From: an uncultured Gammaproteobacteria bacterium
GTDB lineage: Bacteria; Patescibacteriota; Microgenomatia; CAZETR01; Amesbacteraceae
Direction: 5' to 3'
DNA: 64,000 nucleotides
Assembly (NCBI GenBank): GCA_964356225.1
Contig: CAYHGA010000002.1
Coordinates: 14,894-78,893 of the forward strand
The notes beneath the pieces were generated by a model. The model was not told the DNA's origin, did not search any database, and saw only the letters and a list, made by a program, of their open reading frames with translations. Position numbers and translations under genes: made by a program. Positions 35,245 through 53,504 of this stretch are shown here, piece after piece. Each line of letters begins with the position of its first letter. Positions within the stretch are counted from its first letter, which is position 1.

Positions 35245-35381
35245 ACTCCAATTACAAAAAGGACTATGAATATATAGTTAGCTAGCTGATCAGCTCGGCT
35301 GTAATGGCCGGTTAAAAGCAGCCCCGCTTCGATGAGCATGGCGACCCAAAGTACGATTAATAATGCATTTTTACTTGGCAT
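35226..35381 (-). CDS. Small two-helix membrane ORF (51 aa) coupled to the 844-aa GT-C gene. It is not in the ORF track.
   Basis: Manual translation gives MPSKNALLIVLWVAMLIEAGLLLTGHYSRADQLANYIFIVLFVIGVWRLIR. The start overlaps the stop of the upstream gene, and its TGA overlaps the ATG of the 844-aa gene. It resembles the 44-aa ORF at 46396-46530. Confidence 0.4.
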   Translation of the reverse strand: MPSKNALLIVLWVAMLIEAGLLLTGHYSRADQLANYIFIVLFVIGVWRLIR

Positions 35382-36696
35382 ACCACACCTCTACTCCATT
35401 GGTTAAGCTTACTCTTTTACTAAAGTTGTTTTGAAGATATGTGTAAATTAAAGGAGTAAATTCCTGTATTTTTTGACCGTCAATTGAAGCCTGGAGGTCA
35501 ACAAGTACAAATTGGGGCGGATCTGATTTTAATGTAGAAATAATGGTGTCTTCAACACCGGGAACGATATTTCCTCTCAAAAGTTCTATCCATGTTTTTT
35601 GAGGAGGTAGGGTTTGTGTTAAATGGTAAATATTATCGTTTACCCCATAAACGTAGATGGGTCTGCCAAATTTGGCATTTTCCTTTACATAATTAACTGT
35701 ATTTTGGGTACTTTGATCGTAAAAATATATTTTCCCCGGGGTGTCTTTAACCAATACCCTGAATGTAAAGAAAACTCCTAGGGTTAAAAGAACAATTGCT
35801 ACAGACGGAGACAATTTACGTGAGATTGTGTAAATTAGAATTGGAAGAGTAATTTGAGCGTGAATTAGGCCAAATCGGGGAAAAACATAGAAAAGCGAAG
35901 CGAACAGGTAAAAATAATGAAATACATTTTTACTTTTTTGTAATAAAAGCGCCGGAATCACCAGAGACAGAAACCTGGCTAACTCGCCAAAAACCGGCCA
36001 CCGGCCTTCCAGTCTGGTATACCCCTGAAGATTGTGACTGACAGTCCAGAACCAAAAATCTTTAAATACTCCAATTTTATATAACCAAAATAGAATGGTT
36101 GCCATTGGCAATCCTCCACCAATGACAAACCAGGCTAAACGCTGAAGTGATGGTCTCCGGTTTAAGACCCATACCCCCGCGGCCAAACAAAGAAAGATCC
36201 CGTGTTGTTTGAATGTTAATAAAACTCCGAAGATGAGTCCACTAAAGAAGTACGTCAAGTTGTTTTTAAATGTCCATCCAGATTCTAGTACGTAAAATCC
36301 CAAGAGTGAAAGAGTGGCGATAAAGGAATCCACCCACAAAGTATTTCCTTCCCAGGAATATAGAAATAACGAATACAATAATAGACTGGCAAATCTGACG
36401 ACTGAGTTAAAATTTTTTAGTATTTTTGACAAGAGCATGAAATTGGCGATTATCAGGAAAATATGAATAATGCGGAGAATTTCAACTGAGTTTAATGGCA
36501 AGAGCATAAATCCGGGGAAATGCTGGTCGTTGATCTGCGTATATGGGAGCATTCCTGATTTTAGAAAATATATTTCTGTGAGAATTTCAGGATAAGGGAA
36601 GAAGGATGACCGCAAAAGAAGAATTAAAAGTAATGAAAGTGGAATAACAAAGGATATTAGGCTAGATACTCTTGTTTGATGATGAGTTTCCACCAT
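35371..36696 (-). CDS. Polytopic membrane protein, putative GT-C glycosyltransferase
   Basis: 441 aa, about 11 transmembrane helices and a C-terminal soluble domain of about 130 aa. Its start overlaps the stop of an upstream DPM1-like GT2. Confidence 0.4.
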   Translation of the reverse strand: MVETHHQTRVSSLISFVIPLSLLLILLLRSSFFPYPEILTEIYFLKSGMLPYTQINDQHFPGFMLLPLNSVEILRIIHIFLIIANFMLLSKILKNFNSVVRFASLLLYSLFLYSWEGNTLWVDSFIATLSLLGFYVLESGWTFKNNLTYFFSGLIFGVLLTFKQHGIFLCLAAGVWVLNRRPSLQRLAWFVIGGGLPMATILFWLYKIGVFKDFWFWTVSHNLQGYTRLEGRWPVFGELARFLSLVIPALLLQKSKNVFHYFYLFASLFYVFPRFGLIHAQITLPILIYTISRKLSPSVAIVLLTLGVFFTFRVLVKDTPGKIYFYDQSTQNTVNYVKENAKFGRPIYVYGVNDNIYHLTQTLPPQKTWIELLRGNIVPGVEDTIISTLKSDPPQFVLVDLQASIDGQKIQEFTPLIYTYLQNNFSKRVSLTNGVEVWYAK

Positions 36697-37373
36697 AGTT
36701 TTATGATCCCGGTTCCGGTCCGGTATAGCCGAGGCAGGTTAAAGAACTGGCTAAACCCACTCGGCCGGTCATAATGGCTGACCGGGACTTCTTTAATTTT
36801 ATAGCCAAAATGGGATATTTTCTTGACTAGTTCTACACAAATAGTCCCCGACGATTCAAATAATTTAACCTTGTCAAAGACTCTTTTTTCAATTAATCTG
36901 AAGTCACAATCGGTGTCGCGGATTGTTAAGCCAAACATCATTTTAACCGTGTGATGGTAAATTCCTCCCAAAACGGTTCTATACCACGGGTCATGGCGGA
37001 CTTTTTTGTATCCGTTTACTAAGCCGGTACCAGGTCTGTATACTGCGAAAAGTTTAGACAATTCGCGCACGTCGTATTGAGCGTCACCGTCGGTATAAAA
37101 AATTAGCTTGCCCTGTGATTTTTTAAATCCAGACCGTAAAGCACCTCCATAGCCCGTGTTTTTGTTGTGGTGAACGACTCGTAAATTTGGAACCAGTCTT
37201 TTCATTGTTTCCAATGCATCTTTGGACATTTTGTTGCTACCGTCATCAACTACCAGAACTTCGAAACTCTTTTTCAATTTTTTGGCAGTTGATACAGACA
37301 AAAGAATCATACTCCCAACTGTCCCCCAATCATTCAGATATGGAAAGAAAATTGTTAGATCAATTTTTTTCAT
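36657..37373 (-). CDS. GT2 polyprenyl-phosphate glycosyltransferase (DPM1/GtrB-like)
   Basis: 238 aa. EVLVVDDGSNKMSKD...FYTDGDAQYD...GYKKVRHDP...RDTDCDFRL is the DPM1-like core. Confidence 0.75.
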   Translation of the reverse strand: MKKIDLTIFFPYLNDWGTVGSMILLSVSTAKKLKKSFEVLVVDDGSNKMSKDALETMKRLVPNLRVVHHNKNTGYGGALRSGFKKSQGKLIFYTDGDAQYDVRELSKLFAVYRPGTGLVNGYKKVRHDPWYRTVLGGIYHHTVKMMFGLTIRDTDCDFRLIEKRVFDKVKLFESSGTICVELVKKISHFGYKIKEVPVSHYDRPSGFSQFFNLPRLYRTGTGIIKLWWKLIIKQEYLA

Positions 37374-37388
37374 CGGGTTGATTCTACC

Positions 37389-38168
37389 ATGATTCTGTGT
37401 GAGAATAACGCCATGTTGAATAAGGGCAGCGGTTTACACATTAATCCCTGGGAAGGACCTGTTTTAAAAGGAGCTGTCAAGGAAATATTTGAAGTTGCCA
37501 AAAGATATTTAAATAAACCAATTAAGTCCATTTCGGTGTTAGATGTTGGCTCAGGACATGGAGAATATTCAGCCGAAATGGCTAAATTATTTGGGCAAGT
37601 AACTGGGGTTGAGCCTATCCGGGATGTCTATAAAGTGGCCACCCAAAAAAGAATTAGAAAGAATCTGAAATTTTTCAATTCCAAAATTGAAGACTTTAAA
37701 ACTCGCAAAAAATATGACCTCGTCACTCATCTCACCGTGTTTGAACACATGTCGAACCCTAAAGCCGGTTTTGACCGAATTTTTTCTCTCCTTAACAAAA
37801 ACGGAGTTGTTTACTTAACAGCCCCGAACAAATATTGGCTTTTTGAGCAACACTACGGTCTGCCATTTTTGTCCTGGTTACCTTTACCCATTGCGAATAA
37901 ATACCTTGAGCTAACAAGAGGAGCAAAATCCTACGAAGACTGTTCCTATTCTCGGGGATATGGTGGCATGAAAAAGTTTTTCGATCAGTACGATTGCCAT
38001 TATGAATTTATTTTACCTTTTGATGAAAACAGTGCATATATTGGGTGCGGAAGAAGCCAATTGGGATTTACTCTTGTAAAGAAGTTGGGATTAAAACTAA
38101 TTCGTCTTAATCCCTTCTTTTGGAATTTTTCTAAGGGGTTCATAATGATAATTAGAAAAAATACTTAA
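37389..38168 (+). CDS. Class I SAM-dependent methyltransferase
   Basis: 259 aa. ISVLDVGSGHGEYSAEM is SAM motif I. Confidence 0.65.
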   Translation: MILCENNAMLNKGSGLHINPWEGPVLKGAVKEIFEVAKRYLNKPIKSISVLDVGSGHGEYSAEMAKLFGQVTGVEPIRDVYKVATQKRIRKNLKFFNSKIEDFKTRKKYDLVTHLTVFEHMSNPKAGFDRIFSLLNKNGVVYLTAPNKYWLFEQHYGLPFLSWLPLPIANKYLELTRGAKSYEDCSYSRGYGGMKKFFDQYDCHYEFILPFDENSAYIGCGRSQLGFTLVKKLGLKLIRLNPFFWNFSKGFIMIIRKNT

Positions 38169-38169
38169 G

Positions 38170-39114
38170 ATGTCCGTTTGTATTGTTTGTGGAGAAAAAA
38201 GATTTTCCTTCCTTTTTAGGACAAAAGACAGAATGTTTGATATTTCGGGGTCATTTGGTGTCAGAAAATGTCGCCGGTGTGGTCTAGTTTTTTTAGATCC
38301 TCAACCATCACAAAAAATATTAGAAAAACACTATCCTCGTCAACAATATTATTCATACAAAGGAAGTATTAAAGGATTGAGTGGCCTGATAAGACGTTTT
38401 CGTTCATATCTTATTAAAAACTATTACGAACCAACGATTTTAAGTGGCACGTTTTCACTTCTTATTCATGATGTTCCCGGAATACCCAAAAAACCTGATA
38501 AAAAGCCGTGGAAAGTCCTTGATGTGGGTTGCGGATCCGGTGATACATTGATGGCTTTGAAAGAATTAGGATGGGATGTGTACGGACTCGAAATAGACAG
38601 AAATGCAATCAGACTTGCGAAGGAGAGAGGGCTTGTGAATATTAAATTGGGTGGGTATGAAAAAATAGAAAATTTTCCCAATAATTACTTTAACTGCATT
38701 AGGTTATATCATGTGATCGAACATCTACCCAATCCATATCGTTGTCTGCAGCTTATTTACAAAAAACTAAAACCAGGAGGAGAAGTTGTATTAGGAACAC
38801 CAAACGCTGGAAGCATGGTGAGTAAAATCTTTGGCAAATACTGGTATAACCTTGATATACCAAGACATCTTTTTGTTTTTTCTCCTAAAACACTTTCGAG
38901 TCTTATTAAAAAGGCAGGTTTCTCTCAAGTTTCAGCCTCTTTTTGTTCTGGCGACGGTTTAGGTAGAAGTGTTATTTATACAATAAATGAGCTCTTTAAG
39001 AAAAAGATGAATACTAACAAATTTACTTTGCTTTTTTTCATTCTCTATCCAATAGAGTGGATTTTGGATAAATTAAGAGTTGGGGACATTGTGATTCTAC
39101 GGGGAATACGATAA
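38170..39114 (+). CDS. Class I SAM-dependent methyltransferase with an N-terminal Cys4 zinc-ribbon
   Basis: 314 aa. CIVCGEK...CRRCGLVF, then VLDVGCGSGDTLMALKELG (motif I) and KPGGEVVLGTP. Confidence 0.7.
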   Translation: MSVCIVCGEKRFSFLFRTKDRMFDISGSFGVRKCRRCGLVFLDPQPSQKILEKHYPRQQYYSYKGSIKGLSGLIRRFRSYLIKNYYEPTILSGTFSLLIHDVPGIPKKPDKKPWKVLDVGCGSGDTLMALKELGWDVYGLEIDRNAIRLAKERGLVNIKLGGYEKIENFPNNYFNCIRLYHVIEHLPNPYRCLQLIYKKLKPGGEVVLGTPNAGSMVSKIFGKYWYNLDIPRHLFVFSPKTLSSLIKKAGFSQVSASFCSGDGLGRSVIYTINELFKKKMNTNKFTLLFFILYPIEWILDKLRVGDIVILRGIR

Positions 39115-39127
39115 AATAATAGCACAA

Positions 39128-39805
39128 TTGCAAAAAATGAAAAAGTTTTTGAGTGTACTAAAAAAAACTTTTCCGCGTTTTGTCCTAGCCACTTTTGTTG
39201 TGGAGGTTGAAAAACACTTAAAAGGTTGCCAGTCGATCTTGGACGTTGGATGTGGCAATAATTCCCCTATTAGTTTTTTAGAAGAAAAATATACTACTGT
39301 TGGTGTGGATGCATATAAACCTGCAATTGAAGATAGCAAAAAAAGAAAAATACATGATGCTTATATACTTGGAGACATAAAAAAGTTGAACTCATTGGTG
39401 AAAAAAAAATCATTTGATGCCGTGCTAGCACTAGACGTGATAGAACATCTAAAAAAAGATGATGGATATAAACTGCTTGATAGTATGGAGAAAGCCGCAC
39501 GAAAAAAAGTAATTTTGGTCACACCTAATGGTTTTATTCCTCAGTTTGATAAAGACAACAAACTCCAGGCACACCTTTCAGGATGGACTGTTGAAGATTT
39601 TAAAAAAAGAGGATACCATGTAGAGGGTATATATGGCACCAAACTTTGCAATATATTGAGGACTGATGAAGCTGAACTAAGGTGGAAACCTAAATTTTTC
39701 TGGGCATTAGTTTGGGGAGTGTTGGTAGAAATAACTCACCATTTGTATACCAAGAAGAACCCGAAATACTCTATTGGTTTACTTGCAGTTAAAAAAATTA
39801 AGTGA
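39128..39805 (+). CDS. Class I SAM-dependent methyltransferase
   Basis: 225 aa. ILDVGCGNNSPISFL (motif I) ... AVLALDVIEHL (motif II/III). Confidence 0.65.
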   Translation: MQKMKKFLSVLKKTFPRFVLATFVVEVEKHLKGCQSILDVGCGNNSPISFLEEKYTTVGVDAYKPAIEDSKKRKIHDAYILGDIKKLNSLVKKKSFDAVLALDVIEHLKKDDGYKLLDSMEKAARKKVILVTPNGFIPQFDKDNKLQAHLSGWTVEDFKKRGYHVEGIYGTKLCNILRTDEAELRWKPKFFWALVWGVLVEITHHLYTKKNPKYSIGLLAVKKIK

Positions 39806-39807
39806 TC

Positions 39808-40827
39808 TCATTTTTTTAAATTTTCCCTCACTAGTGATAAATGATGTAAATAAAAAGATAAAGGAGGGTTTTTCATTACCCGTTTAAAAATCTCGTTGTC
39901 ATCTAGTTTGCGTCTTTTTTGAATAAAACTTCGTTTTTCTAATGTATCATTTATATTTAATATATTCCACCATATTGCCTTAAGTATCGCTACCGACCCA
40001 TCAGTCTGTCCTGATAAGAAAAAATAAGTTGACAACACTACACAAATTACAATATGAATAGGAAACATCCAAAGCAATGTTGTTAAAGATGTGTTCTTGA
40101 TAATTGTTCTTATTCTGTTTTTAAATGAATGGTAATGGATGAAAGCACTTCTCATGGTTGTGCTTGTTGCTCCCATTTTGTGATATATTATTGATTCAGG
40201 TTCGAAGGCAACGTGATACCCCGTGACCCAAGCACGCCAACACAAATCCGATTCCTCAAAATAACACCAATATTTCTCATCAAAAGCACCTAACTCTAAA
40301 ACCGCTTTCTTAACCATCATACATGCTCCTTTGGCCGCAAATGTTTCTCTAAATTTCTTATATTCAGTTTTATCAGTATCCAAATATCCTATATGAAATA
40401 AGAAACCCATATTCGTCAAATAAGAAACTACATTATCAAGTTGTTCTGGATTGTCCATAATAAATATCTTACTTTGAACTATCCCCAAACTGGGGTCTTT
40501 TTCAAGATCAACTACTAGAGGTTCAATAAAACCAGGAGTTACTAAAGTATCATTGTTCAAAATCAACAAATATTTTCCTTTTGCATGTCTGATCCCAGCA
40601 TTGTTGCCACCAACATAACCAGAATTGTTATTGTTTAAAACTTGTCTGACTTTGGGAAACATCTTTTTAATTACCTCTACGGATTCGTCTTGAGAATTGT
40701 TATCGACAACAATTACCTCATAATTAGGGTAAGTTATTTTCTTCAGCGACTTCAAACAATTTAAAGTAAACTGCTTCTGGTTAAAATTTACAATAATTAT
40801 CGAAACTTTTGGATAAATCATTTCCAA
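39808..40827 (-). CDS. Glycosyltransferase family 2 with C-terminal transmembrane helices
   Basis: 339 aa. VSIIIVNFNQKQFTLNCLKSL...YEVIVVDNNSQDES; hydrophobic C-terminus. Confidence 0.75.
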   Translation of the reverse strand: MEMIYPKVSIIIVNFNQKQFTLNCLKSLKKITYPNYEVIVVDNNSQDESVEVIKKMFPKVRQVLNNNNSGYVGGNNAGIRHAKGKYLLILNNDTLVTPGFIEPLVVDLEKDPSLGIVQSKIFIMDNPEQLDNVVSYLTNMGFLFHIGYLDTDKTEYKKFRETFAAKGACMMVKKAVLELGAFDEKYWCYFEESDLCWRAWVTGYHVAFEPESIIYHKMGATSTTMRSAFIHYHSFKNRIRTIIKNTSLTTLLWMFPIHIVICVVLSTYFFLSGQTDGSVAILKAIWWNILNINDTLEKRSFIQKRRKLDDNEIFKRVMKNPPLSFYLHHLSLVRENLKK

Positions 40828-42554
40828 ATACCGATTTTAATGTCTTCCTTAACAGATAAAAACTTTGTGGAAAACATTCCCGAAAGCCCGGCCAGCGTTT
40901 CCAAAGATTTAACCAAGAAAACACCAATTGTTAAAATAGGGTGAGATAGAAGTTTTCTCCAATTTCTAAAAAATGCAGGTCTAAAAATAATATTTCCGTA
41001 CTTTAATGCGAATGCCGGATTTGCCAACATGAGTATACTTGCTGTTCTTCCGTAAAAAAACTTCTTTTTCATGGAGTTGAATATACTAAAATTTCCTTCA
41101 TTATGATAGATTGGTCCACTTATTCTTCCAATCCTAAAGCCCGACCTCCTTACTCTCAAATCTAAGTCTTTATCTTCAGATAAAACCATTTTTTCGTTAT
41201 GACCCCCGACTAATTTGTAAACGGATGTCTTGAAAAAACGGGCAGATTCTATGGTATCATCTCCAACATACATACTTCTCTCGAATATTTTCACTTTTGC
41301 CCAAAAGCCCCTTCCGTATGAAATTTCAGGAATAACGAGAGCGTCATAATTTTTTATCTTTTTTATGCACTGCTCTAGTACTGAAGAAGCAAGTTTCATG
41401 TCAGCGTCCAAATGCAGTAGATACTCACCCCTGGCTAATTCAGACGCGGATTTTCTTCCTTGGGCCATACTAATATTTTTTTGTAGATGTCTTATCTTAA
41501 TTTTTTTGCTAAATCGTTTTAAAAGATATTTTGTGTCGTCCATTGTTTTTACGTCATCATTAATAATGACTTCAAATTTTTTATTTGTTTGTTTCACAAG
41601 CGAAGGAAGCAAATTTTTCAGATGTTCACCTGCATTTAAAGTGGGGACAATGATCGAGATCAAACCTTCTTCTGTCTTACTTTTTTTCATCGGTTCATAA
41701 TTTTTAAGATTTTCCAGTGTCTTGTCTGTAAATATCACTTGAATTGTATTTATAAAACCCCAAAGAGCGGCAAATGTTTCTAGTGTTTTCATCAAAAACA
41801 TTCCTAGCGATAAAGTAGGGTTTGCCAGTATTTTCTTCCAATGCCTAAAATACGCGGTTCTGAAAATTAAGTTGGCTTGATTGAGAGCCTGTTTGGGGTT
41901 TTCTGCTATATAAACGTGTGCTGTTTTACCGTAGAAAAACTTTTTCTGTAAATTTTTTTTAAGACTCAAATTGCCTTCATTGTGATAAATGGGGGCGTTA
42001 ATTCTTCCTATTTTAAAGCCGGCTTTTCGGATTCTTAAGTCTAAATCTTTATCCTCTGATAACACCATTTTTTCATTATGGCCTCCAATTTTGTTGTAGA
42101 CATCCGTCTTGACAAATCGAGCAGATTCTATAGTTTCGTCACCGATATACATGCTTCTTTCAAACGTTTTTACCTTAGCCCAATATCCTTCCCCATATGA
42201 AATTTCAGGAATAATTAAAGCGTCGTACCCTTTGTTAACCTCTTTGATACATGACTCTAACACCTTTGATGATAAAGACATGTCTGCGTCAAGATGTAAA
42301 AGATATTCTCCCGAAGCTTGCTTAGCTCCTCTTTTCCTCCCTTGAGCCATACTAATGTTCTCCCGTAAATATTTTACTTTAAGCTTTTTGCTAAATTTCC
42401 TTAGCACCACTTTTGTATTATCCGTGGTCATTTTGTCATCATTAATAATCACTTCAAAATTTTTGTACGTTTGATTAACTAGAGATGGCAAAAGATCGTT
42501 TAAATAGCCCGCGGCATTTTTTGTAGGAATTATAATTGAGATTAATTTATTCAT
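40818..42554 (-). CDS. Tandem-duplicated two-domain GT2 glycosyltransferase
   Basis: 578 aa. Residues 1-290 and 291-578 are collinear paralogous GT2 modules about 70% identical, for example ISIIIPTKNAAGYLNDLLPSLVNQT versus ISIIVPTLNAGEHLKNLLPSLVKQT. Each half ends in a hydrophobic segment. Confidence 0.75.
   Translation of the reverse strand: MNKLISIIIPTKNAAGYLNDLLPSLVNQTYKNFEVIINDDKMTTDNTKVVLRKFSKKLKVKYLRENISMAQGRKRGAKQASGEYLLHLDADMSLSSKVLESCIKEVNKGYDALIIPEISYGEGYWAKVKTFERSMYIGDETIESARFVKTDVYNKIGGHNEKMVLSEDKDLDLRIRKAGFKIGRINAPIYHNEGNLSLKKNLQKKFFYGKTAHVYIAENPKQALNQANLIFRTAYFRHWKKILANPTLSLGMFLMKTLETFAALWGFINTIQVIFTDKTLENLKNYEPMKKSKTEEGLISIIVPTLNAGEHLKNLLPSLVKQTNKKFEVIINDDVKTMDDTKYLLKRFSKKIKIRHLQKNISMAQGRKSASELARGEYLLHLDADMKLASSVLEQCIKKIKNYDALVIPEISYGRGFWAKVKIFERSMYVGDDTIESARFFKTSVYKLVGGHNEKMVLSEDKDLDLRVRRSGFRIGRISGPIYHNEGNFSIFNSMKKKFFYGRTASILMLANPAFALKYGNIIFRPAFFRNWRKLLSHPILTIGVFLVKSLETLAGLSGMFSTKFLSVKEDIKIGIWK
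40818..42554. repeat. Intragenic tandem direct repeat, two units of about 870 bp each (about 75-80% nucleotide identity)
   Basis: The duplication is seen both in the protein and in DNA. Compare 41170-41350 with 42040-42220. Confidence 0.7.
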
Positions 42555-42870
42555 TTGGGGGTTTAGTCGCTACTTTTAACAGTCTTAAAAAAGAATAAAA
42601 GACAAATGTGTAAATCATGAATCCGGTTTGTATTCCAAACAGGCTTAGTGGCAGAAGAAATAGAATGCTAAAAATGACTAAAGTTTCCGGGACTTTATAC
42701 ATCGTTACTATTGCCAATGAAAATAAGAGCAACTTAAGCTCCAGGCTTTGTTCTAAAATATAAACTTCGGCTCCGGTCTTTATAAGCTCAGAAAAAATAA
42801 TATAGAAAATCAAAAGTAACATAATTTTTGGCTTTTCCAGATGTATATGCGTAATTATATTAATTTTCAT
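42547..42870 (-). CDS. Small polytopic membrane protein, possible GtrA-like lipid-linked sugar translocase
   Basis: 107 aa with 3-4 predicted transmembrane helices. It lies between a GT2 and a giant GT-C gene with 4-8 nt overlaps. Assignment rests on size, topology and context only. Confidence 0.35.
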   Translation of the reverse strand: MKINIITHIHLEKPKIMLLLIFYIIFSELIKTGAEVYILEQSLELKLLLFSLAIVTMYKVPETLVIFSILFLLPLSLFGIQTGFMIYTFVFYSFLRLLKVATKPPNE

Positions 42871-45800
42871 TTTTTTGAATAAAATAATACTAAATATATT
42901 AACCCCAAACTAAACAACGATATTATACTAACTAAAGAAGTTTTATAGAGAATATTTTGGGGCCGATACTCGATAAGAAATGCCAATTCCTTTTCACTAC
43001 CACTGTCTATTAACCAACCGTTGCCATAAGCATTTAACTTAATATCCGGACTTTTAGCCCCCTCTCCCTTAAACACCAAATCTGATAATAAATGCCTGTC
43101 CTGTCTTTCATATTCGACCACTTTTCCGCCCAAGTATTTTTTCTCTCTGCCTTTAAAATAGGAGTTGGCAAGACTTGTTTCTACTTCCCGCACACTCCAC
43201 TGTTGATCAAACCTAGAATTAAAACCTAAAATAAACGAGTCGCTGATACCGGACACTTTGACAAGATAAGCGGTCTGATTAAGCGCTACAAATTGTAAGT
43301 TGTAGTTTTCTGGCGGAATTAATGGATTTTCTTTTGTTACAAAAGCCAAATAATCGGAATAATTTTCAGTGACTTTTATACCTTTTAATTCAAAGGCAGC
43401 AGGAAAGTCATAAGTACCCTCTACACATATTCTTAAGAGGGCCGTTTCTGCATAAATACTTGGTTTATATTTAATATTTAACCTATAGGAAAATGGGGCA
43501 GAAGAATTTTTATCCGTCTGGGGATAAATAGTTTTTTTATTGCCTTTGGGAAATTGTTGATTTGTCTCCAGAAGTTCAATATCCACTAATCTATCGGAAA
43601 GTGTCAAATATTCCAAGTTGAGATTATAGTCTATTTCAGGATCTACCTCACCAAGATTTATTGATTTGCATTCAGAAGATCTAGCGGTTGCGTTGATTTT
43701 GAAACCGGGATAGGATTTCTCTTTGCGAATTAATTCTGGCAAAACTATTGATTGTCCGCCCTGGTCAAGTCTAATTGATTCTCCAAAATACCATTTATTA
43801 CTTGAGGACGACTTTGCAAGGATGTGAGGGGTATTGTTTACGAATCCAGAAAGAGCTTGTCTATCATTGGGCTTGTAATTATAAACAGCCAGTTTGTAGT
43901 TGCCTGCGTATGGTACGTTTATAGTATATTGTTTTGTGCGTACATCGTAATTAGAAATAGGAACCTCGGGAGAAATGTCCAATTCCTGAACGCTCATGGT
44001 TAACATGTCCTCAAATTTGCCTAGTTGTGCCCGAGTTGATTCTGTAAGTCCAGTCTCCCTCCACTTTTGGATACTGACCAAAAAATTCCAGTAGTAAAAA
44101 TATATTCTGCGAGCGTATTCGTCTTTTTGACTTTGTTGGTCAATATCCTTGAAGAACTGATCAACTAGATAGATATTGTTACTCCACTTTCGAAAAAGAT
44201 ACGAAATCGTATTACTATTTTTGGGATTTATTATTATTCTGTCCATGGCTGATATCTCCTTACTCATTGTTCCCATAGTAAAGTCTATTTTTTCTGTTGG
44301 CAGTTCATACTTTTCACTTTTTTGTTGGTCTATAAATTCAATAAGAAAATAAAATGGATTGCTTGGAAAGATCGGAGGAGGGTTTGATCTCACGACGTCT
44401 ATGTATTTTTTTTCTTGACAATTTAAACACTGTGCTTGAATTGTAATGTTTTGAATATCCTTCTGGTATATGATAGGGTCTATATTGCTTCCCTCGCTAA
44501 TGTGCTTGAATATAAACGCGTCTGCCAAAGAAGGCATCCCTGGCGTTTGACTGATTCGAGAAAGTTGTGAAGTTTCTGCCAAAATATATGAAAAATTTTG
44601 TGGGATATAAATGAGAGGTTTTGTCTCGGGGTCGTTAATAGTAAAAAACTTCCACTTACCAACTTCTTTATATAAAGATGAATTAGGCGCGCGGTAGAGT
44701 GCCTTTTTGATTGAACCCGTAAGATAGTCCATGTCCTCGTCAACTTTAAAATCTTCTTGCACGATAGCTCTATCTACTCCCACGTATTTCAGAAGCGATG
44801 ACTGAGAAGATTTTTCAAGTTGTTGATAAATTGCATTAACTAACCCGGGCTCGTCCCCACTCAAGACGGCGTCATTAAGTAGAACCGGTTTTCTGCTCAA
44901 TATGCTGGGTATACTCGATAGGCTGAAGTATTTCCAATCATAAGCAATATATTTATTGCCGTCGTGAAGTTGGGGTAGCATGAGTGTTCTGGCGGAAAAA
45001 CTATTACTATCAAGCTCCTTCTTTGCCTCTAGGATATAGTCTGGAACTTTAACTCTGGTGGAGTATTTATTAGACCAATTGAAAAACACTCCTGTAAAAA
45101 CCGGGTAGTTATATATGCCCAATAAGACGACAAAGGCAGTGAGGCTAAAAAAAGGCGCTCTCTTTACGGTCAGCTGTTTTAAACCGACCGCTACTAGATA
45201 AGAATAAGCAAACCAAAGGGCCATACCAAATTTATAAAAGGGGGTTCGGAAAATCGGAAAACCGGGGATATATTTTAAGGCCAGGTCATATAAGACACCT
45301 GTTGGAGGGTGGGAACCTGCCGTAAAAGGTATTGCTACCAGCAAAATCGCCAGAAATACGACTTTGTAAACTATGTCAGAGTTGGCTTGACCCTTTTTGT
45401 TAAGCAAGCTGAAAAAGGCTATGGCAGGAAAAACGCTGGCAAGCAGTAAAAAGAAATAATTTGTTAGAAGTGTATTGGCATACGGATGGTTGGGATTATC
45501 ATACCAATCGGGTATGCCTTGGAGTTTAATAAGGTTGGTGAAACTGGCATTTTTACTTATCTCGCGACTCCAGGCGATTGCTCCTTCGCTACCACCTGCG
45601 GCACCGATTCTATGTGTATAGTTATATTGATATGAAGCTATGTAGGGATATATCCAGTAGAAGTTGAGTAGGAGGACAAAAATTAAAGATAAAAGAGAGA
45701 AACTTAAAGTTCTTTTGAATTTATCTACAAATGGTTGTGAAGAAATTAGAAAAGTTATTATCGTTGTAGTTAGAGCAACAATGAATAACCCTCCCCATAA

Positions 45801-46391
45801 CGGAATCCCGGCTCCACCGTTTAGGAAAAAAAGTGTTACTCCTACCAGGATGGCATTTTTAAAAACTGACCCTTCTCTTAAATTAACATTGATTATTGCG
45901 AGAGTTATCAAAGGAAGCGCTGAGACAATAGAAAACTTGGACATCTCGGCAATAATCCAGGCCTGGAGAAGATAATGGTTCAGCATGTAAAACAAAGATC
46001 CGGAAATTCTTAAGACGGAATTTTCTTTTTCTGGGTGAAGCGATTTTAAAAGAACGTACATAGTTATCCCGGGAAGGGTAAACCAGAAAATGAAGTCAAA
46101 CTTTTGAGCAAGCTGTAATGAGCCTGTTAGCGCGTAAAAAAACGCCTGTAGGCCGTGTATAAAAATACCGGGGATGGCATCGGTTTGATTAGAACCAAAA
46201 CTGCCAACTCTATCAGTCCAAACAAATAACCTGTCTAACCAAAAGTCTATTGGGGCTAAAGGATAACTCATATCGTGGCCAGCGGCTAAATAACCACCCT
46301 TAAACCACAAAAGCGGTACTAACCCTACTAGGAGAAGGAATATTATTTCCAACCAATACCGATTAAATTTAGGTAGTTTCAACGGTCCCAT
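42867..46391 (-). CDS. Giant polytopic membrane protein, putative GT-C glycosyltransferase (AftD/YfhO-like)
   Basis: 1174 aa. About 13 N-terminal transmembrane helices, first loop GHDMSYPLAP...WTDRVGSFGSNQ, a soluble domain of about 650 aa, and one C-terminal helix. It is a paralog of the 1031-aa neighbour. Confidence 0.5.
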   Translation of the reverse strand: MGPLKLPKFNRYWLEIIFLLLVGLVPLLWFKGGYLAAGHDMSYPLAPIDFWLDRLFVWTDRVGSFGSNQTDAIPGIFIHGLQAFFYALTGSLQLAQKFDFIFWFTLPGITMYVLLKSLHPEKENSVLRISGSLFYMLNHYLLQAWIIAEMSKFSIVSALPLITLAIINVNLREGSVFKNAILVGVTLFFLNGGAGIPLWGGLFIVALTTTIITFLISSQPFVDKFKRTLSFSLLSLIFVLLLNFYWIYPYIASYQYNYTHRIGAAGGSEGAIAWSREISKNASFTNLIKLQGIPDWYDNPNHPYANTLLTNYFFLLLASVFPAIAFFSLLNKKGQANSDIVYKVVFLAILLVAIPFTAGSHPPTGVLYDLALKYIPGFPIFRTPFYKFGMALWFAYSYLVAVGLKQLTVKRAPFFSLTAFVVLLGIYNYPVFTGVFFNWSNKYSTRVKVPDYILEAKKELDSNSFSARTLMLPQLHDGNKYIAYDWKYFSLSSIPSILSRKPVLLNDAVLSGDEPGLVNAIYQQLEKSSQSSLLKYVGVDRAIVQEDFKVDEDMDYLTGSIKKALYRAPNSSLYKEVGKWKFFTINDPETKPLIYIPQNFSYILAETSQLSRISQTPGMPSLADAFIFKHISEGSNIDPIIYQKDIQNITIQAQCLNCQEKKYIDVVRSNPPPIFPSNPFYFLIEFIDQQKSEKYELPTEKIDFTMGTMSKEISAMDRIIINPKNSNTISYLFRKWSNNIYLVDQFFKDIDQQSQKDEYARRIYFYYWNFLVSIQKWRETGLTESTRAQLGKFEDMLTMSVQELDISPEVPISNYDVRTKQYTINVPYAGNYKLAVYNYKPNDRQALSGFVNNTPHILAKSSSSNKWYFGESIRLDQGGQSIVLPELIRKEKSYPGFKINATARSSECKSINLGEVDPEIDYNLNLEYLTLSDRLVDIELLETNQQFPKGNKKTIYPQTDKNSSAPFSYRLNIKYKPSIYAETALLRICVEGTYDFPAAFELKGIKVTENYSDYLAFVTKENPLIPPENYNLQFVALNQTAYLVKVSGISDSFILGFNSRFDQQWSVREVETSLANSYFKGREKKYLGGKVVEYERQDRHLLSDLVFKGEGAKSPDIKLNAYGNGWLIDSGSEKELAFLIEYRPQNILYKTSLVSIISLFSLGLIYLVLFYSKK

Positions 46392-46532: not shown

Positions 46533-49500
46533 CTATAAAAGTAAAAAAAATAAAATAATCAATAAAGAGGCTGTACTTACTCCTACTGCTTTGTAAAAAT
46601 CGTTTTGGTTATTATATTCCAAAAGATAAACATGTTCATTATCCTGGTTACTTTTTTCGGAATTTAAAATCCACCCGGGAGAGAAACCATTTAGTTCAAG
46701 AGTCGGATAAAGTTTTTTGCCGTTGTTTGGGAAAACGATGTCTGATAGCACGTGGGTATCTTGTCTTTCGTACTCAACCACTTTGCCGTTTTGAAAACTT
46801 CTCTTGTCTCCTCTAAAGTATTTGTTTACATCTTGCTCTATTTCTCTTAAACTCCAATTCGGATCAAAACGCGAGTTAAAGCCTAGCAAGAAGCGTTCGC
46901 TGCCTTTAGCTTTGAGTAAATATTTGGTTTGATTTAGGGCTACAAATTCAATATTTGGTGAAACAAACTCGGGAGCATTTTTCATCAATTCTGCAAAAAT
47001 TTTAGGTCTTGTTTCTGAATTTTTCGGTTTTTGTAACTCTAATAAAATCCGTACGTTTTCAAGCGGCACATTGGTAATTTGGTACCAATTTGTGCCGATT
47101 CTTTGAGCGCTAAACGTGCGATTGTTAACCGTCAATTGTATTTGATCACTTAATGTTGACTTATTGTAAAGATAAAGATTATAGCTTCCTGTTTCCGGAA
47201 CTTCGAGGCCGTATTTATATAATTTGTCGTCTACCTTCACCACAGGCTGTCCAAACTGTTCATCAATTTCTGTAATAGCTTTTCTTAATTCAATTTCAAG
47301 ATTAATCAGGTCTGATTTTATCGGGCCTAGTTGAGCAGAAGTTGCCCACTGAGATTCATAAGAAATGAAAAATGACAAGTAAAAACGAAGTTTTCTAAGG
47401 ATTTCTTGTTTTATTTTTGAATCCGAAATTTGATCCAGGTTAAGTTTCATTTCTTTCAAGTTTTTGATTAAATCCATTACTGCTACCCCGATCCCCTTTT
47501 CATCTTTCTTGGCTTGAAGCAAACCCAGGTCTGAAATTAAAGTTGTAGAAGCCGATAAATTGATTTCAATTCTCGCGTTTGGACTACCGGAAAAGTATTT
47601 TCTCGCGTCAGTTATAAACTTACCCAGCTTATAAAACGCTGTTCCGGGTATTAACGCCTTTGATGTGGAGAAATATATTTGATAGTTATCGGCTGAAGGA
47701 CAATCAGTACAATTAGCCTGGATAATAAGTTTAGAAAAAATGTCTACTTTTTTGTTATCTTCTGGAAAATCAGACCACAAAAACGCAGCGCTATCTAAGG
47801 CCCCTGGCAGATTTGCGACTATATCTAAATCTTTTTGATCAGATGAAATGAATGTAACTGCCGGTGGAGAGTAAATTCGAGGAAGGATTTCCCCATTATA
47901 ACCGTAGAAATCCCATCTTCCTATACTTTTCTTAAAAGTAAAATCTTTAGATTTTTTAAATGACTCTTTTATCCCACTTAAGACGTTGCCTTCATAATCT
48001 GGCGAAATAAAGTCATTTTGCACTACGGCTCTGTCAGCCCCTGTAAATTTAACCAAATTAGAATTTCCAAATTTAATATACTCTGATAAAGTGCTGATTA
48101 TCAAATTTGTCTCATTGGGCCTTGCTAACACTCCGTTTACTGTTAAGGATTTTCTTCCCATCATATGTGACAAATCATTTAAGCTAAAATAACCCCAATC
48201 GTAATCAATATACTCAGTTCTTATATCAGCGTTGGGTAAAGATAAAGTTCTGGTAGAGAATTTACTACTATCAAGTTCCTTCTTTGCTTCAAAGATATAA
48301 TCAGGCACTTTTACCATCGTGGATTTCCCTTTAGAATAGTTAAAAAAACTTCCTGTTAAAAATGGATAATTGTATATAAAGAGCGAAACTATAAATGCGC
48401 CAAGTAAAACCTTTGGTTTAATTTTTAACCAGTCTATTACATCTTTGACTCCCACTGCGATTAAATAGGCATAAGCAAACCAAATAATCATCCCAAATTT
48501 AAAAAACCCGGAACGAAACATGCCAAAACCGGGGGCGTTAACCAACAAGTAATCGTAAAATATTCCCAAAGGAGAATGGCTTCCTGCAGAGAGCGGAACT
48601 GCAATAAGTAATAAACTTAAGAAGTAAATTCTCGTTTTAAATAATAAGCCCGATAGTTTTTTAAGATTTAAAAGACCAAACAGAGCTAAAGTCGGAAAAA
48701 GAAGGTTTAGAAATAATAATATGGGATTTTTAAAAAATTCATTTGCAAAAGGATGATTTGGGCTGGCATACCAATCAGGTATTCCCCTAAGTTTAAACAG
48801 GTTTATCCAACTGGTATTTACGCTTATCCCCTGGCTCCAGGAAAGAGTCCCCGCTATTCCCCACGCTTGTTCGAATCTTTGCCCAAAGGTTTGGTTATAA
48901 GACTTAAAATAAGGGTAAAACCAATAACTACTAAGCAGTGTCCAGAATAAAGCAGATAAAAAAGAAAAGATGAGTAATCTTTTTATCTTAGGCCAAAAAC
49001 TTTCGTTTGACAAAAAGAAGAATATTATTGCTGTCGATGCAACTACTACAAACAAGCTAATCAAAAGTGGAATACCCTCTCCACCATTTAAGAAAAATAA
49101 GGTCAGGGCAAAGAGTAGAGAATTTTTTACGGGAGATTCTTTTTTATGTAATGTCTTAATTATTAAAAGTACAACTATAGGTAGAGCTGCGACGATTGAA
49201 AACTTAGTTCTTTCCGCGATAGTCCAGGCCTGAAGAAGATAGTGGTTCATCATGTAAAATAGGCTTCCGAAAATTCTAACCGGATAATCATTTTTCTTAG
49301 GATGTAGATAACAAAGAAGTGCGTACATCATAATTCCCGGAAGAACAAACCAAAAAATGTAAGTTATCTTTTGAACTGCGGATAGCGAGAACCCTATGAA
49401 GGACAGCAAAGCTTCAAGTCCATGTATAAACACGCCCGGCAGAACTTGAACTGAATTAGAGCCAAATGGGCCCAGTCTGTCGGTCCATGTATATAGTCTA

Positions 49501-49628
49501 TCTAAAAAATGAGCTACTGGGGCCAGGGAGAAACCCATATCGTGACCCAATCCTATGTATCCAGGCTTATACCAAAGAAGTGGTGCTAAACCAACGATTA
49601 ACAATAAAAGGATCTCAATTTTTTTCAT
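46533..49628 (-). CDS. Giant polytopic membrane protein, putative GT-C glycosyltransferase (paralog of 42867-46391)
   Basis: 1031 aa. N-terminus LIVGLAPLLWYKPGYIGLGHDMGFSLAPVAHFLDRLYTWTDRLGPFGSNS aligns with the 1174-aa protein. Same topology, ending in a C-terminal helix. Confidence 0.5.
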   Translation of the reverse strand: MKKIEILLLLIVGLAPLLWYKPGYIGLGHDMGFSLAPVAHFLDRLYTWTDRLGPFGSNSVQVLPGVFIHGLEALLSFIGFSLSAVQKITYIFWFVLPGIMMYALLCYLHPKKNDYPVRIFGSLFYMMNHYLLQAWTIAERTKFSIVAALPIVVLLIIKTLHKKESPVKNSLLFALTLFFLNGGEGIPLLISLFVVVASTAIIFFFLSNESFWPKIKRLLIFSFLSALFWTLLSSYWFYPYFKSYNQTFGQRFEQAWGIAGTLSWSQGISVNTSWINLFKLRGIPDWYASPNHPFANEFFKNPILLFLNLLFPTLALFGLLNLKKLSGLLFKTRIYFLSLLLIAVPLSAGSHSPLGIFYDYLLVNAPGFGMFRSGFFKFGMIIWFAYAYLIAVGVKDVIDWLKIKPKVLLGAFIVSLFIYNYPFLTGSFFNYSKGKSTMVKVPDYIFEAKKELDSSKFSTRTLSLPNADIRTEYIDYDWGYFSLNDLSHMMGRKSLTVNGVLARPNETNLIISTLSEYIKFGNSNLVKFTGADRAVVQNDFISPDYEGNVLSGIKESFKKSKDFTFKKSIGRWDFYGYNGEILPRIYSPPAVTFISSDQKDLDIVANLPGALDSAAFLWSDFPEDNKKVDIFSKLIIQANCTDCPSADNYQIYFSTSKALIPGTAFYKLGKFITDARKYFSGSPNARIEINLSASTTLISDLGLLQAKKDEKGIGVAVMDLIKNLKEMKLNLDQISDSKIKQEILRKLRFYLSFFISYESQWATSAQLGPIKSDLINLEIELRKAITEIDEQFGQPVVKVDDKLYKYGLEVPETGSYNLYLYNKSTLSDQIQLTVNNRTFSAQRIGTNWYQITNVPLENVRILLELQKPKNSETRPKIFAELMKNAPEFVSPNIEFVALNQTKYLLKAKGSERFLLGFNSRFDPNWSLREIEQDVNKYFRGDKRSFQNGKVVEYERQDTHVLSDIVFPNNGKKLYPTLELNGFSPGWILNSEKSNQDNEHVYLLEYNNQNDFYKAVGVSTASLLIILFFLLL

Positions 49629-51246
49629 TTGTGATATCCTTTTTTAATTTCTCTCTTATGTTTCCAGAAACGTTTTTAACAGAGTGTTTTTGATAGTCCC
49701 AATAATACGCATGCACATTGTCAGAAGATACGTCTGGATTCTCTTTGAGCGCACTTAATAGTTTGCTATAAGTCATGAAATATCCGTATTTGCCAGTTTT
49801 ATATTGTTTAAGCCCTTCATGGGAGAGGTCCCAAAAATCTGGATCGGTTAAAGCTTCATTTGGAACCTTGCCGGTGTTGTATAACCAAACAGCTAATGTT
49901 TGTCCAAATCCTGACTGAAATTCCCAAAACCCATTATTGTCCGTAAAAAAATAAAAGACATTGTTTCTTTCCAAGTTTGGTTTAATTTGTGATACAGTCT
50001 CAAGCATGGCTTTGCGGTATGCTCCTGTTTTGATATCTAATGCCAAGTCTCGTTTGATATTTGTTACATAATAACCCAAGAGGGGTAACAATATTATTAT
50101 GGATAATGGCAGTTTAATTTTAGGCAAAATTGACATATAAGTGTCGACTGTGAGAGCCAAAATCAGCCCTGCCCAAAGAGCGGGAAAAATATAAAAGCGG
50201 TGCTCTAATGTTGCCGGTTGGTTGGGGAACAAGACAAAAGGCGCACAGGAAAAACCAAAAGTTACTAGCGAGAACAATATTGTTTTTTTTGACCTTTTGG
50301 CTAAAGCTACGGCCCCAAGTACTATTGATAAGACTGTAATTGAACCAATTACTGAAACGGCGTCTCCAATAATGCTTTCTATTACATAACCGTTAGTCAA
50401 ATCTCCATAATGGATCTTGTTAGCTTTGTAAAATAAACTATAAAGTTGTTTTTGGGGGATGAAGACTTGGAAAAGGGTACGGGAAGGAATTAAAAGTGTG
50501 TTGTAGACAATATTTCCGCTCTGGGTAATTTTAGCCGCTTCAGGAACACTAGATGAAACCTCAATATTTTTGAAAAGTAGTTTTGGAAGTGCAATTGTTA
50601 AAAGAATTGGAATTATTAATATACTCCAACTCCATCTAATGCCTTTGGAAAAGACTAGTAATGGAAAAGTAAGTATGTAATATATTCCAGATTCTTTAAA
50701 AAGCAGTGAGATCAACATAAAGAGTGAGCAAAGTAATAAATTTTTTATCCTGCGATTTTTTCGGAAGGTTAATAGATTCCAAAAAGACATCATGAAGAAT
50801 GTAAACGAAAACTGAGACGGCACAATCGAGCTAATCCACGTGATGGCTTGTTGTGAGTATCCGTTTGTTAACCAAAATAGCGTAGTTACGATGGAAATTA
50901 CCCTGGATTCAGTAAGCTTCTCGATGCAAAAGTAAATTAGCAGAGAATTGGCCACTGCCATAAAAAATGCCAAATAACCGTACCATGAAAAATTTAGGCC
51001 GAAGGTGTTGAAAACCACATAATTGGCCAAAGATGTAAGGGGAAGGAATCTGAACAAGCCTCCGGCTGGATGAAATATGTCTATAACGGCTCGGGTTATG
51101 CCACCATTATCCCTTCTACTCATGGCCCCACCCAATCCCAACCACTCATCCTGCTGAAAAAAGATGTTATTTATTCCCCAAAAGGCTAGTAGAGCAACTA
51201 AAATAATTATTGACAAACTAAGAATGTGGGGCCGTATCTTACGCAT
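49615..51246 (-). CDS. Polytopic membrane protein, putative GT-C glycosyltransferase
   Basis: 543 aa, about 13 transmembrane helices. First loop FFQQDEWLGLGGAMS has a D-E motif. A soluble C-terminal domain of about 130 aa follows. Confidence 0.45.
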   Translation of the reverse strand: MRKIRPHILSLSIIILVALLAFWGINNIFFQQDEWLGLGGAMSRRDNGGITRAVIDIFHPAGGLFRFLPLTSLANYVVFNTFGLNFSWYGYLAFFMAVANSLLIYFCIEKLTESRVISIVTTLFWLTNGYSQQAITWISSIVPSQFSFTFFMMSFWNLLTFRKNRRIKNLLLCSLFMLISLLFKESGIYYILTFPLLVFSKGIRWSWSILIIPILLTIALPKLLFKNIEVSSSVPEAAKITQSGNIVYNTLLIPSRTLFQVFIPQKQLYSLFYKANKIHYGDLTNGYVIESIIGDAVSVIGSITVLSIVLGAVALAKRSKKTILFSLVTFGFSCAPFVLFPNQPATLEHRFYIFPALWAGLILALTVDTYMSILPKIKLPLSIIILLPLLGYYVTNIKRDLALDIKTGAYRKAMLETVSQIKPNLERNNVFYFFTDNNGFWEFQSGFGQTLAVWLYNTGKVPNEALTDPDFWDLSHEGLKQYKTGKYGYFMTYSKLLSALKENPDVSSDNVHAYYWDYQKHSVKNVSGNIREKLKKDITNEKN

Positions 51247-53501: not shown

Positions 53502-53504
53502 TGA

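Follow-up and report, generated by a model that had tools for sequence, protein, structure and literature searches.

The model we propose for the window under study (the whole stretch of DNA analysed here, 64 kb of contig CAYHGA010000002.1) centres on a 578-amino-acid (aa) protein in which two modules of glycosyltransferase (GT) family 2 (GT2) are joined in one chain, and on the two genes transcribed before it, which encode a 107-aa membrane protein and a giant 1174-aa glycosyltransferase of the GT-C fold. With moderate confidence, we read the double GT2 as a Leloir enzyme of non-Gtr type whose two active sites would perform two cytoplasmic additions, the giant GT-Cs as AftD-type enzymes working outside the membrane, and the 107-aa protein as a partner of the GT-C. 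The founding event of the model would be the single duplication of a GT2 of about 290 aa in the ancestor of a groundwater clade of Patescibacteria, after which both modules would have stayed catalytically competent. The double GT2 would be held on the cytoplasmic face of the membrane by its amphipathic and hydrophobic C-terminal helices, where it would use nucleotide sugars to extend a lipid-linked glycan intermediate by two sugars, one after the other. The AftD-type GT-Cs would act later, outside the membrane, with a polyprenyl-phosphate-linked sugar that would be made by an enzyme resembling UbiA and decaprenyl-phosphate phosphoribosyltransferase (the DPPR synthase), and the 107-aa protein is a candidate accessory subunit of the GT-C or a candidate flippase for its donor. 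The model starts from computed features, namely the duplication and its age, the motifs, the selection, the folds and the synteny, from which we infer the membrane association, the logic of donors and acceptors, the place of each enzyme in the pathway and what the 107-aa protein does. The genes and modules concerned are the following, in the order of transcription.

46533-49628, minus strand: 1031-aa protein, paralogous to the giant GT-C and in tandem with it (identity 41% across 828 aa, and 33% in the C-terminal 300 aa)
42867-46391, minus strand: 1174-aa GT-C, predicted to be of AftD type (open reading frame; fold match; homologs with PF11847)
42547-42870, minus strand: 107-aa small polytopic membrane protein of a putative orphan family (open reading frame; 12 homologs; 3-4 hydrophobic segments)
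40818-42554, minus strand: 578-aa double GT2 (open reading frame; PF00535 twice)
41745-42554, minus strand: half A of the double GT2, aa 1-270, a GT-A module (INDD at 37, LDADM at 88, SEDKD at 166, HNEG at 191)
41664-41744, minus strand: 27-aa linker between the modules (IQVIFTDKTLENLKNYEPMKKSKTEEG), delimited by the alignment of the halves
40866-41663, minus strand: half B of the double GT2, aa 298-563, the second GT-A module (INDD at 331, LDADM at 382, SEDKD at 459, HNEG at 484)
39808-40827, minus strand: single-domain GT2 downstream of the double GT2 (Pfam GT2 match at 1e-30; one hydrophobic segment, 246-273)

The transcription of the minus strand proceeds from the 1031-aa gene to the 1174-aa GT-C, the 107-aa gene, the 578-aa double GT2 and finally the GT2 of about 337-339 aa. 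The open reading frames of 578, 107 and 1174 aa are those of the initial annotation, in position as in size, and the junction overlaps of 4-8 nucleotides (nt) that it reported are confirmed: 4 nt (ATGA) are shared by the giant and the 107-aa gene and 8 nt (ATGAATAA) by the 107-aa gene and the double GT2, a tight coupling by overlapping stops and starts. Its description of the double GT2 as followed by the small membrane protein and then by the giant is correct in plus-strand coordinates but not in transcription, where the giant GT-C comes first and the double GT2 is read after the 107-aa gene. The 339-aa gene downstream was listed with a TTG start; the ATG two codons further on (40821) gives 337 aa, as called in the relatives, and lets its start codon overlap the stop codon of the double GT2 gene (ATGA). 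The TTG start is probably wrong, and the 337-aa protein the correct one. This GT2 is kept in all the relatives examined. Relatives have one extra methyltransferase of 215-218 aa behind it, a gene that the window is without. The 1174-107-578-337 arrangement is found identically on 13 independently assembled contigs, such as ENA ERZ1292622 ("Hain_H52_02um").

The internal repeat of the 578-aa protein is real, and its similarity is far beyond chance. PF00535 matches the protein in two stretches (157 bits for a cut-off of 23.3, 4.7e-46), and residues 4-270 and 298-563 are collinear with a single one-residue gap, joined by the 27-aa linker, which upholds the proposal of an in-frame duplication leading to a two-module GT2. 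The halves align at 64.8% over 267 aa by BLASTP (E 2e-135) and at 69.5% over 573 nt by BLASTN (E 8e-66). Over the whole repeat, in which the copies are spaced by 879 nt, the identity is 65% at the protein and 66% at the DNA level, rising to 74% only in the best ungapped DNA segment, of 264 nt; the strong repeat described initially is therefore there, but the identities attached to it (about 70% aa and 75-80% nt) were too high.

The same comparison contradicts the impression that the duplication looks recent. Identity between the halves is 72%, 83% and 42% at the three codon positions, and the proportion of synonymous differences (pS) is 0.86, that is, saturated, for a proportion of nonsynonymous differences (pN) of 0.20. 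A search of 5.8 billion proteins returned about 24 orthologs with both modules at full length (575-586 aa, 67-84% identity), mostly metagenomic and one of them labelled Patescibacteria, and the sole close relative in the scan of GTDB genomes is L006, the Patescibacteria metagenome-assembled genome H43-bin206_1; the family is thus known almost exclusively from metagenome contigs. When the halves are separated and placed in a neighbour-joining tree (56 sequences, 269 columns, 200 bootstraps, about 20 orthologs), the A halves form one clade (84% bootstrap), the B halves form another together with three single-module proteins (100%), and A and B together are monophyletic with respect to other GT2s (99%). 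Since the A and B clades are separate across about 20 orthologs, the duplication predates the split of these lineages, and the tree indicates that it happened once, before any of the sampled lineages diverged.

Both modules appear to have been maintained since then. The motifs NDD/INDD (37/331), LHLDADM (88/382), SEDKDLDLR (166/459) and HNEG (191/484) show at least 90% conservation in each half across 21 orthologs, each module having its DXD (LDADM) and its acidic SEDKD region, and the mean identity to the orthologs is 74% for half A and 75% for half B. The ratio of nonsynonymous to synonymous substitution rates (dN/dS) is beyond reach between the halves, where the synonymous sites are saturated, as they are for orthologs at 67-74% identity; a finite dS comes only from the comparison with L006, the closest ortholog with DNA sequence, and only for half A, and in this comparison dN is 0.114 (A) and 0.102 (B), dS about 2 or saturated, and dN/dS about 0.06 or less. 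These values point to strong purifying selection on both halves, with the catalytic motifs intact. Ten sites are fixed within each half but differ between them, nine of which lie in the last 60 residues or so and none in the nucleotide-sugar motifs. Since the donor pockets are nearly identical and the fixed differences fall in the C-terminal part, close to the acceptor or to the membrane, the two modules probably use the same or similar donors and differ in their acceptors or linkages.

The relatives contain single-domain as well as double-domain versions, a comparison already envisaged in the initial annotation: fused, split two-gene and B-only forms are all found. The fused gene occupies the same gene order in loci L003 and L004. 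Locus L001 has a B-type gene only, of 323 aa (P0025), half A being absent, and P0027 is likewise B-only. Locus L005 has two overlapping genes, for a 284-aa A-type GT2 and for a 318-aa B-type protein (74%); the former is 59% identical to A and 55% to B, and joins the A clade at 60% bootstrap. The single or split B-type proteins (P0025-27) start with the sequence that serves as the linker in the fused form. By the identities of three markers (the GT2 of about 339 aa, a 222-aa methyltransferase and the core of half B), the fused L003 is the most divergent from the window, and the split L005 and the B-only L001 are closer to it. Because L005 and L001 are thus nested nearer the window than a fused locus, parsimony makes it most likely that, within the sample, the ancestor had the fused gene and that the fission and the loss of A are derived. 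We also considered a tandem gene duplication followed by fusion as the ancestral route, which is hinted at by the tail of the L005 A-type protein, loosely resembling a B tail; it was set aside, the identities of the neighbouring genes placing L005 and L001 inside the fused lineages. The original event itself could be either an intragenic duplication or a gene duplication plus fusion. More distant double GT2s (P0028, P0029, P0031 and P0032) are hetero-fusions of two different GT2 subfamilies, and the fusion of GT2 modules is therefore recurrent in this group. In P0028 and P0029 the order of the subfamilies is opposite, and an extra FkbM methyltransferase or GT4 domain is present.

The class of the double GT2 is not that given initially, in which it was called GtrB-like. 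The best NCBIfam models for each half are EpsD (5e-40), TIGR04283 and TuaG, whereas the ArnC/GtrB-type model reaches 5e-6, and BLASTP aligns E. coli K-12 GtrB (YfdH) with the N-terminal 120 aa alone, at E 0.006. A scan for transmembrane (TM) segments, with a Kyte-Doolittle (KD) hydropathy of at least 1.6 over 19 residues, finds none in the 578-aa protein; the same scan finds segments 230-255 and 261-284 in E. coli GtrB, its two C-terminal TM helices. Each half of the double GT2 ends with an amphipathic, basic and aromatic helix (233-244 and 526-537; hydrophobic moments muH 0.53 and 0.67), followed by a moderately hydrophobic helix, which suggests a peripheral or monotopic protein at the membrane. 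The best sequence match in the Protein Data Bank (PDB) is the K4 chondroitin polymerase (K4CP), by both GT-A domains (1.4e-17). The AlphaFold2 (AF2) model has two Rossmann-like GT-A modules, with a mean predicted local distance difference test (pLDDT) of 87.9, and places the linker within a long helix (246-284). Foldseek ranks K4CP 2Z86 first (5e-22), followed by PmHS2 (1.6e-13), TarS, RmlT, LARGE1 and TarP, a top rank that is largely due to a two-domain target covering both halves (K4CP, PmHS2 and LARGE1 are all two-GT-A-domain enzymes), the TM-scores being about 0.3. Neither GtrB nor DPMS is among the top 50 Foldseek matches. By these profiles and models, the 578-aa protein would be an enzyme resembling K4CP, PmHS2 and the nucleotide-sugar enzymes of TarS/TarP type rather than GtrB.

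The 107-aa protein was first presented as GtrA-like, with three or four helices. Its small size and its 3-4 hydrophobic segments in the hydropathy profile are confirmed, but not its membership of the GtrA family. Pfam and NCBIfam scans of the 107-, 1174- and 1031-aa proteins, and of a 543-aa protein of the same locus, gave no match even at E<=10; none of the 12 homologs of the 107-aa protein (62-90% identity, 102-116 aa) has a Pfam domain; and the alignment with E. coli GtrA (YfdG) by hhalign, a check of the kind proposed at the outset, has a probability of 0.09%. In this family an invariant charged core, YILEQSLELK, interrupts the first half. A HMMER profile search of 1.84 billion representative proteins retrieved 9 clusters only, none of which ties the family to a larger one. 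To judge from these searches, the 107-aa protein belongs to an orphan, lineage-specific family and is not a detectable relative of GtrA.

The pattern of divergence in the slot that separates the giant GT-C from the GT2 speaks for a functional link of the 107-aa protein with the adjacent GT-C and not with the GT2. Compared with the window copy, the small protein of L001 is 66% identical, that of L003 41% and that of L004 16%; L005 has an unrelated 199-aa protein instead. Over the same loci, the adjacent giant GT-C is at 71%, 49%, 41% and 36%. The small protein would therefore diverge in step with the giant GT-C while the GT2 stays at 67-76%. The slot is always filled by a small polytopic membrane protein (L005:3932-4531; L004:9705-10004). 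The 199-aa protein of L005 was tried as a diverged or duplicated homolog of the 107-aa protein and rejected (hhalign probability 0.5%); it has an internal repeat of its own (57% over 28 aa, E 8e-9). The 99-aa protein of the L004 slot, at its 16% identity, is effectively unrelated. A bolder and rather improbable extension would make the slot proteins a new class of allele-specific GT-C partners or donor-specific flippases in Patescibacteria, with the homo-duplicated GT2 adding one sugar by two linkages to the acceptor they decorate.

That the giant protein has a GT-C fold, as proposed initially, is borne out by its AF2 model and by the Foldseek comparison; the qualification GtrC-like is not, since it is of AftD type, two to three times as large as GtrC and present as a tandem pair. 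Neither the 1174-aa nor the 1031-aa protein matches PF11847 at E<=10, and single and profile searches against PDB sequences give a marginal match to AftD (E 0.1). The homologs of the giants are Patescibacteria proteins of Microgenomates type, many with PF11847 (GT-C_AftD), which is matched by 31 of the 38 aligned homologs (best 1.5e-15). The marginal sequence match is settled by the comparison of folds. In the AF2 model (pLDDT 86.9, predicted TM-score (pTM) 0.83), a polytopic module of about 10 N-terminal TM helices (11-433) is followed by an alpha/beta region, a helical bundle (681-804), beta-sandwich modules (819-1142) and a single TM helix (1143-1171). The top Foldseek match is AftD 6W98 (E 9.8e-16, probability 1.00), and the next are STT3, DPY19, AftA and ArnT (probability 1.00), ALG12 (0.99), ALG9 and Pmt4. 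The motif G38-H39-D40, just past TM1, is invariant in 38 family members; residues 40-93 are the only stretch alignable to AftD by sequence. K39 and D41 are essential in AftD, and D40 would be the equivalent of this D41. On the strength of the fold, the 1174-aa protein is predicted to be a GT-C of AftD type. It would share with AftD (6W98; PF11847/DUF3367) the GT-C fold, the Asp after TM1, a large extracytoplasmic beta-sandwich domain and a C-terminal membrane anchor, at an identity of about 9%. AftD has in addition three carbohydrate-binding modules and a C-terminal TM bundle that binds acyl carrier protein; the 1174-aa protein has one C-terminal TM helix instead of this bundle, plus a helical DUF5667-like insert. 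AftD is mycobacterial, whereas the host of the 1174-aa protein is a monoderm-like bacterium of the Candidate Phyla Radiation (CPR) without arabinogalactan.

The tandem GT-C pair is kept in L001, L003 and L004. From lineage to lineage, the copy beside the small protein is far more variable (33-71%) than either the flanking genes or the upstream copy (48-72%), and behaves as if it were a swapped, specificity-determining allele. CPR homologs are already annotated automatically as DUF3367/AftD-like, and our literature searches found no work linking AftD or GT-C to Patescibacteria/CPR.

The lipid-linked donor of the giant GT-Cs would more plausibly be supplied by other genes of the locus than by the double GT2.

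53505-54383, minus strand: UbiA-family protein (PF01040, 1.8e-23; NF008977, 8.4e-28)
36657-37373, minus strand: 238-aa GT2 of ArnC/PgfS/AglJ/PpgS type (NCBIfam ArnC, 5.8e-18)
35371-36696: 441-aa PMT_2-like membrane protein (weak PMT_2 match, 0.01)

The UbiA-family protein, whose gene is also present in L001, matches NF008977, the model of the decaprenyl-phosphate phosphoribosyltransferase, over its full length, and this UbiA/DPPR-synthase-like enzyme is the better candidate donor synthase. In mycobacteria, enzymes of this class make the lipid-linked pentose precursor used by AftD. The 238-aa GT2 is the only GtrB/Dpm1/PpgS-like catalytic domain in the locus: besides ArnC, it matches PgfS (4e-16), Dol-P-hexose transferase (1.5e-9) and PpgS (2.4e-7) in NCBIfam, and E. 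coli GtrB by BLASTP (5e-8). Together with the 441-aa protein, it is a better candidate for a unit of the "GtrB plus GT-C" kind than the genes of the initial annotation. The genes of this pair overlap by 40 nt, and L005 has the pair as well.

Pentofuranose is added outside the membrane by a widespread three-component route, made up of a UbiA-type synthase, a flippase and a GT-C (Kelly et al. 2024, PMC11127046). With these systems and with the mycobacterial decaprenyl-phosphoryl arabinose (DPA) pathway, the locus shares a UbiA-family protein, AftD-related GT-Cs and transporters of the MOP superfamily, and the position of Rv3789 in M. tuberculosis is comparable to that of the small membrane protein beside the GT-C here. 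It differs from the pentofuranose systems in that its GT-C is not a GT136 and its UbiA score is below the curated cut-off. Neither a HAD or PAP2 phosphatase nor a DprE1/E2-like epimerase was identified in the locus, where the only phosphoesterase candidate is a fusion of a PHP domain with a methyltransferase; this 513-aa protein is encoded next to the UbiA-family gene (51960-54383 for both). It is pure inference that its PHP domain could be the 5'-phosphatase of a pentofuranose donor pathway. By analogy, the three-component pentofuranose framework fits the giant GT-Cs better than the Gtr model would.

Several observations weigh against the model as a whole. The donor-side motifs of the halves are nearly identical, so that both sites could catalyse the same reaction. 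The B-only relatives (L001 and P0027) mean that half A is dispensable in some lineages, which fits redundancy equally well. The pTM of the double GT2 is 0.55, which makes the geometry between its modules unreliable and leaves independent action and a pseudo-dimer indistinguishable. That the small protein co-varies with the GT-C is seen at four loci only, and the UbiA-family protein scores 97.6 bits for a curated NF008977 cut-off of 234 bits.

The first three of these points bear on a single-chain pseudo-dimer, in which an ancestral homodimer would have been hard-wired by fusion and both sites would perform one reaction without a second specificity. We regard this as unlikely, although it is the most serious competitor. 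Essentially identical donor-side motifs would be expected of it, as would the viability of the B-only (L001) and split (L005) forms, in which separate chains would substitute for the fused one, and the fixed differences in the C-terminal helices could mark a dimer interface. It accords less well with halves that have remained distinct and equally constrained in about 20 lineages, with 10 sites fixed differently, which suggests that they are not interchangeable, nor does the AF2 model offer a confident packing of one module on the other. The A-type copy of L005 has moreover diverged faster after the fission (58% as against about 74%), a hint that its role differs from that of B.

A processive co-polymerase of the K4CP/PmHS2 kind, whose modules would alternate in the synthesis of a long disaccharide-repeat polymer, is decidedly improbable. 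These are the closest solved relatives of the 578-aa protein by sequence and fold, and bifunctional enzymes with two GTs of this kind are well documented: like the protein of the window, K4CP (PDB 2Z86/2Z87), PmHS2 (8VIW/8VH7) and LARGE1 (7ZVJ) have two GT-A modules per chain with a DXD in each. Their domains, however, are strongly diverged, use different donors and make alternating co-polymers, whereas the halves here are 62-65% identical, share their donor-side motifs and descend from a lineage-specific duplication; the structural rank, as said, owes most to two-domain coverage at TM-scores of about 0.3, and B-only relatives exist. The context also differs from that of a capsule synthase: the Wzx flippases, a Wzy_C protein and several GT-Cs of the locus point to lipid carriers and to a lipid-linked, extracytoplasmic assembly. 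A parallel in logic is KpsC, the capsule beta-Kdo transferase of family GT107, in which an internal duplication has produced two homologous active GT modules that use one donor and form different linkages. What we propose for the double GT2 follows the same principle, in a different GT family, fold class and pathway.

The reading of the three genes as a Gtr-type O-antigen modification trio, in which the GT2 would make a polyprenyl-phosphate sugar, the 107-aa protein would flip it and the giant GT-C would transfer it to a surface glycan, mostly fails, and we hold it to be very improbable. Its attraction lies in three adjacent, translationally coupled genes, in a giant whose GT-C fold calls for a lipid-linked donor, in a small protein with the size of GtrA and 3-4 hydrophobic helices, and in the interfacial-type amphipathic helices of each GT2 half. 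This likeness, a linked set of a GT2, a small polytopic protein and a GT-C, is superficial. The GT2 is without the TM helices of GtrB, its matches to GtrB and ArnC are weak and its structural neighbours are neither GtrB nor DPMS; the 107-aa protein gives no GtrA signal in Pfam, hhalign or the profile search; the GT-C is of AftD type and two to three times larger; the gene order is another one; and the locus holds better donor-synthase candidates, the UbiA/DPPRS-like gene and the 238-aa ArnC/PpgS-like GT2. In Gtr systems, GtrA and GtrB are conserved, interchangeable parts, and a small protein that follows the divergence of its GT-C is the reverse of this. An assembly artefact (an expanded repeat, as the initial annotation considered) or a decaying pseudogene half can be practically dismissed, since nothing beyond the existence of the repeat speaks for either while copies only 66% identical in nucleotides are too diverged for an expansion induced by the assembler, the architecture recurs in about 24 orthologs from independent assemblies and the identical locus on 13 contigs, and both halves are intact and under purifying selection.

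The two-active-site Leloir GT2 that we favour lies in a window largely devoted to glycans. The window begins with a dcw-type region (FtsA, MurG and a penicillin-binding protein), followed by glycan genes (DUF4012, GT4s, Wzy_C); about 50 kb of its 64 kb are glycan biosynthesis, in what is presumably a small CPR genome, and the glycan locus that contains the double GT2 spans at least 35 kb. At about 28-32 kb the guanine-plus-cytosine (GC) content falls from 44-49% to 33-40%, and the low-GC block, which runs to the end of the window, is glycan biosynthesis throughout: it contains two Wzx-type flippases (Polysacc_synt, MOP superfamily), more GT2 and GT4 enzymes, the PMT_2-like and other large membrane proteins, the PHP-methyltransferase fusion and the UbiA-family protein. 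There is no tRNA gene in the 64-kb window, and hence none flanking the low-GC part of the locus. At least seven S-adenosylmethionine-dependent methyltransferases are encoded in the glycan block, three of them consecutive on the opposite strand (31992-32723, 37389-39805 and 51267-53501 are the positions of this set), and their density suggests heavily methylated sugars. Large proteins without a family are encoded at 32710-35244 (844 aa), 49615-51246 (543 aa) and 60225-61994 (589 aa). The first is laid out like the giants, with TM helices at the N-terminus, a soluble domain and a TM anchor at the C-terminus, and has a weak MmpA-like match; the second is polytopic, with an L004 ortholog that has a weak PMT_2 match; the third has a single N-terminal TM helix.

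In conclusion, multi-module GTs, AftD-type GT-Cs and the three-component logic of GT-C systems are already established, and our observations do not overturn the current understanding. What they add is modest: a series of fused, split and single forms of one GT2, and a variable slot for small membrane proteins that co-varies with a GT-C. This natural series would be useful for asking what the fusion of GT modules buys. Patescibacteria (CPR), whose genomes are tiny, live mostly in attachment to host cells, and their surface glycans are therefore likely to be central to their lifestyle; to our knowledge, these glycans are chemically unknown. The locus places AftD-type GT-Cs together with a DPPR-synthase-like gene outside Actinobacteria. 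Could pentofuranose, then, be a constituent of the surface of these organisms? The prediction that follows from our model is that some CPR bacteria would build pentofuranose-containing surface polymers outside the membrane.

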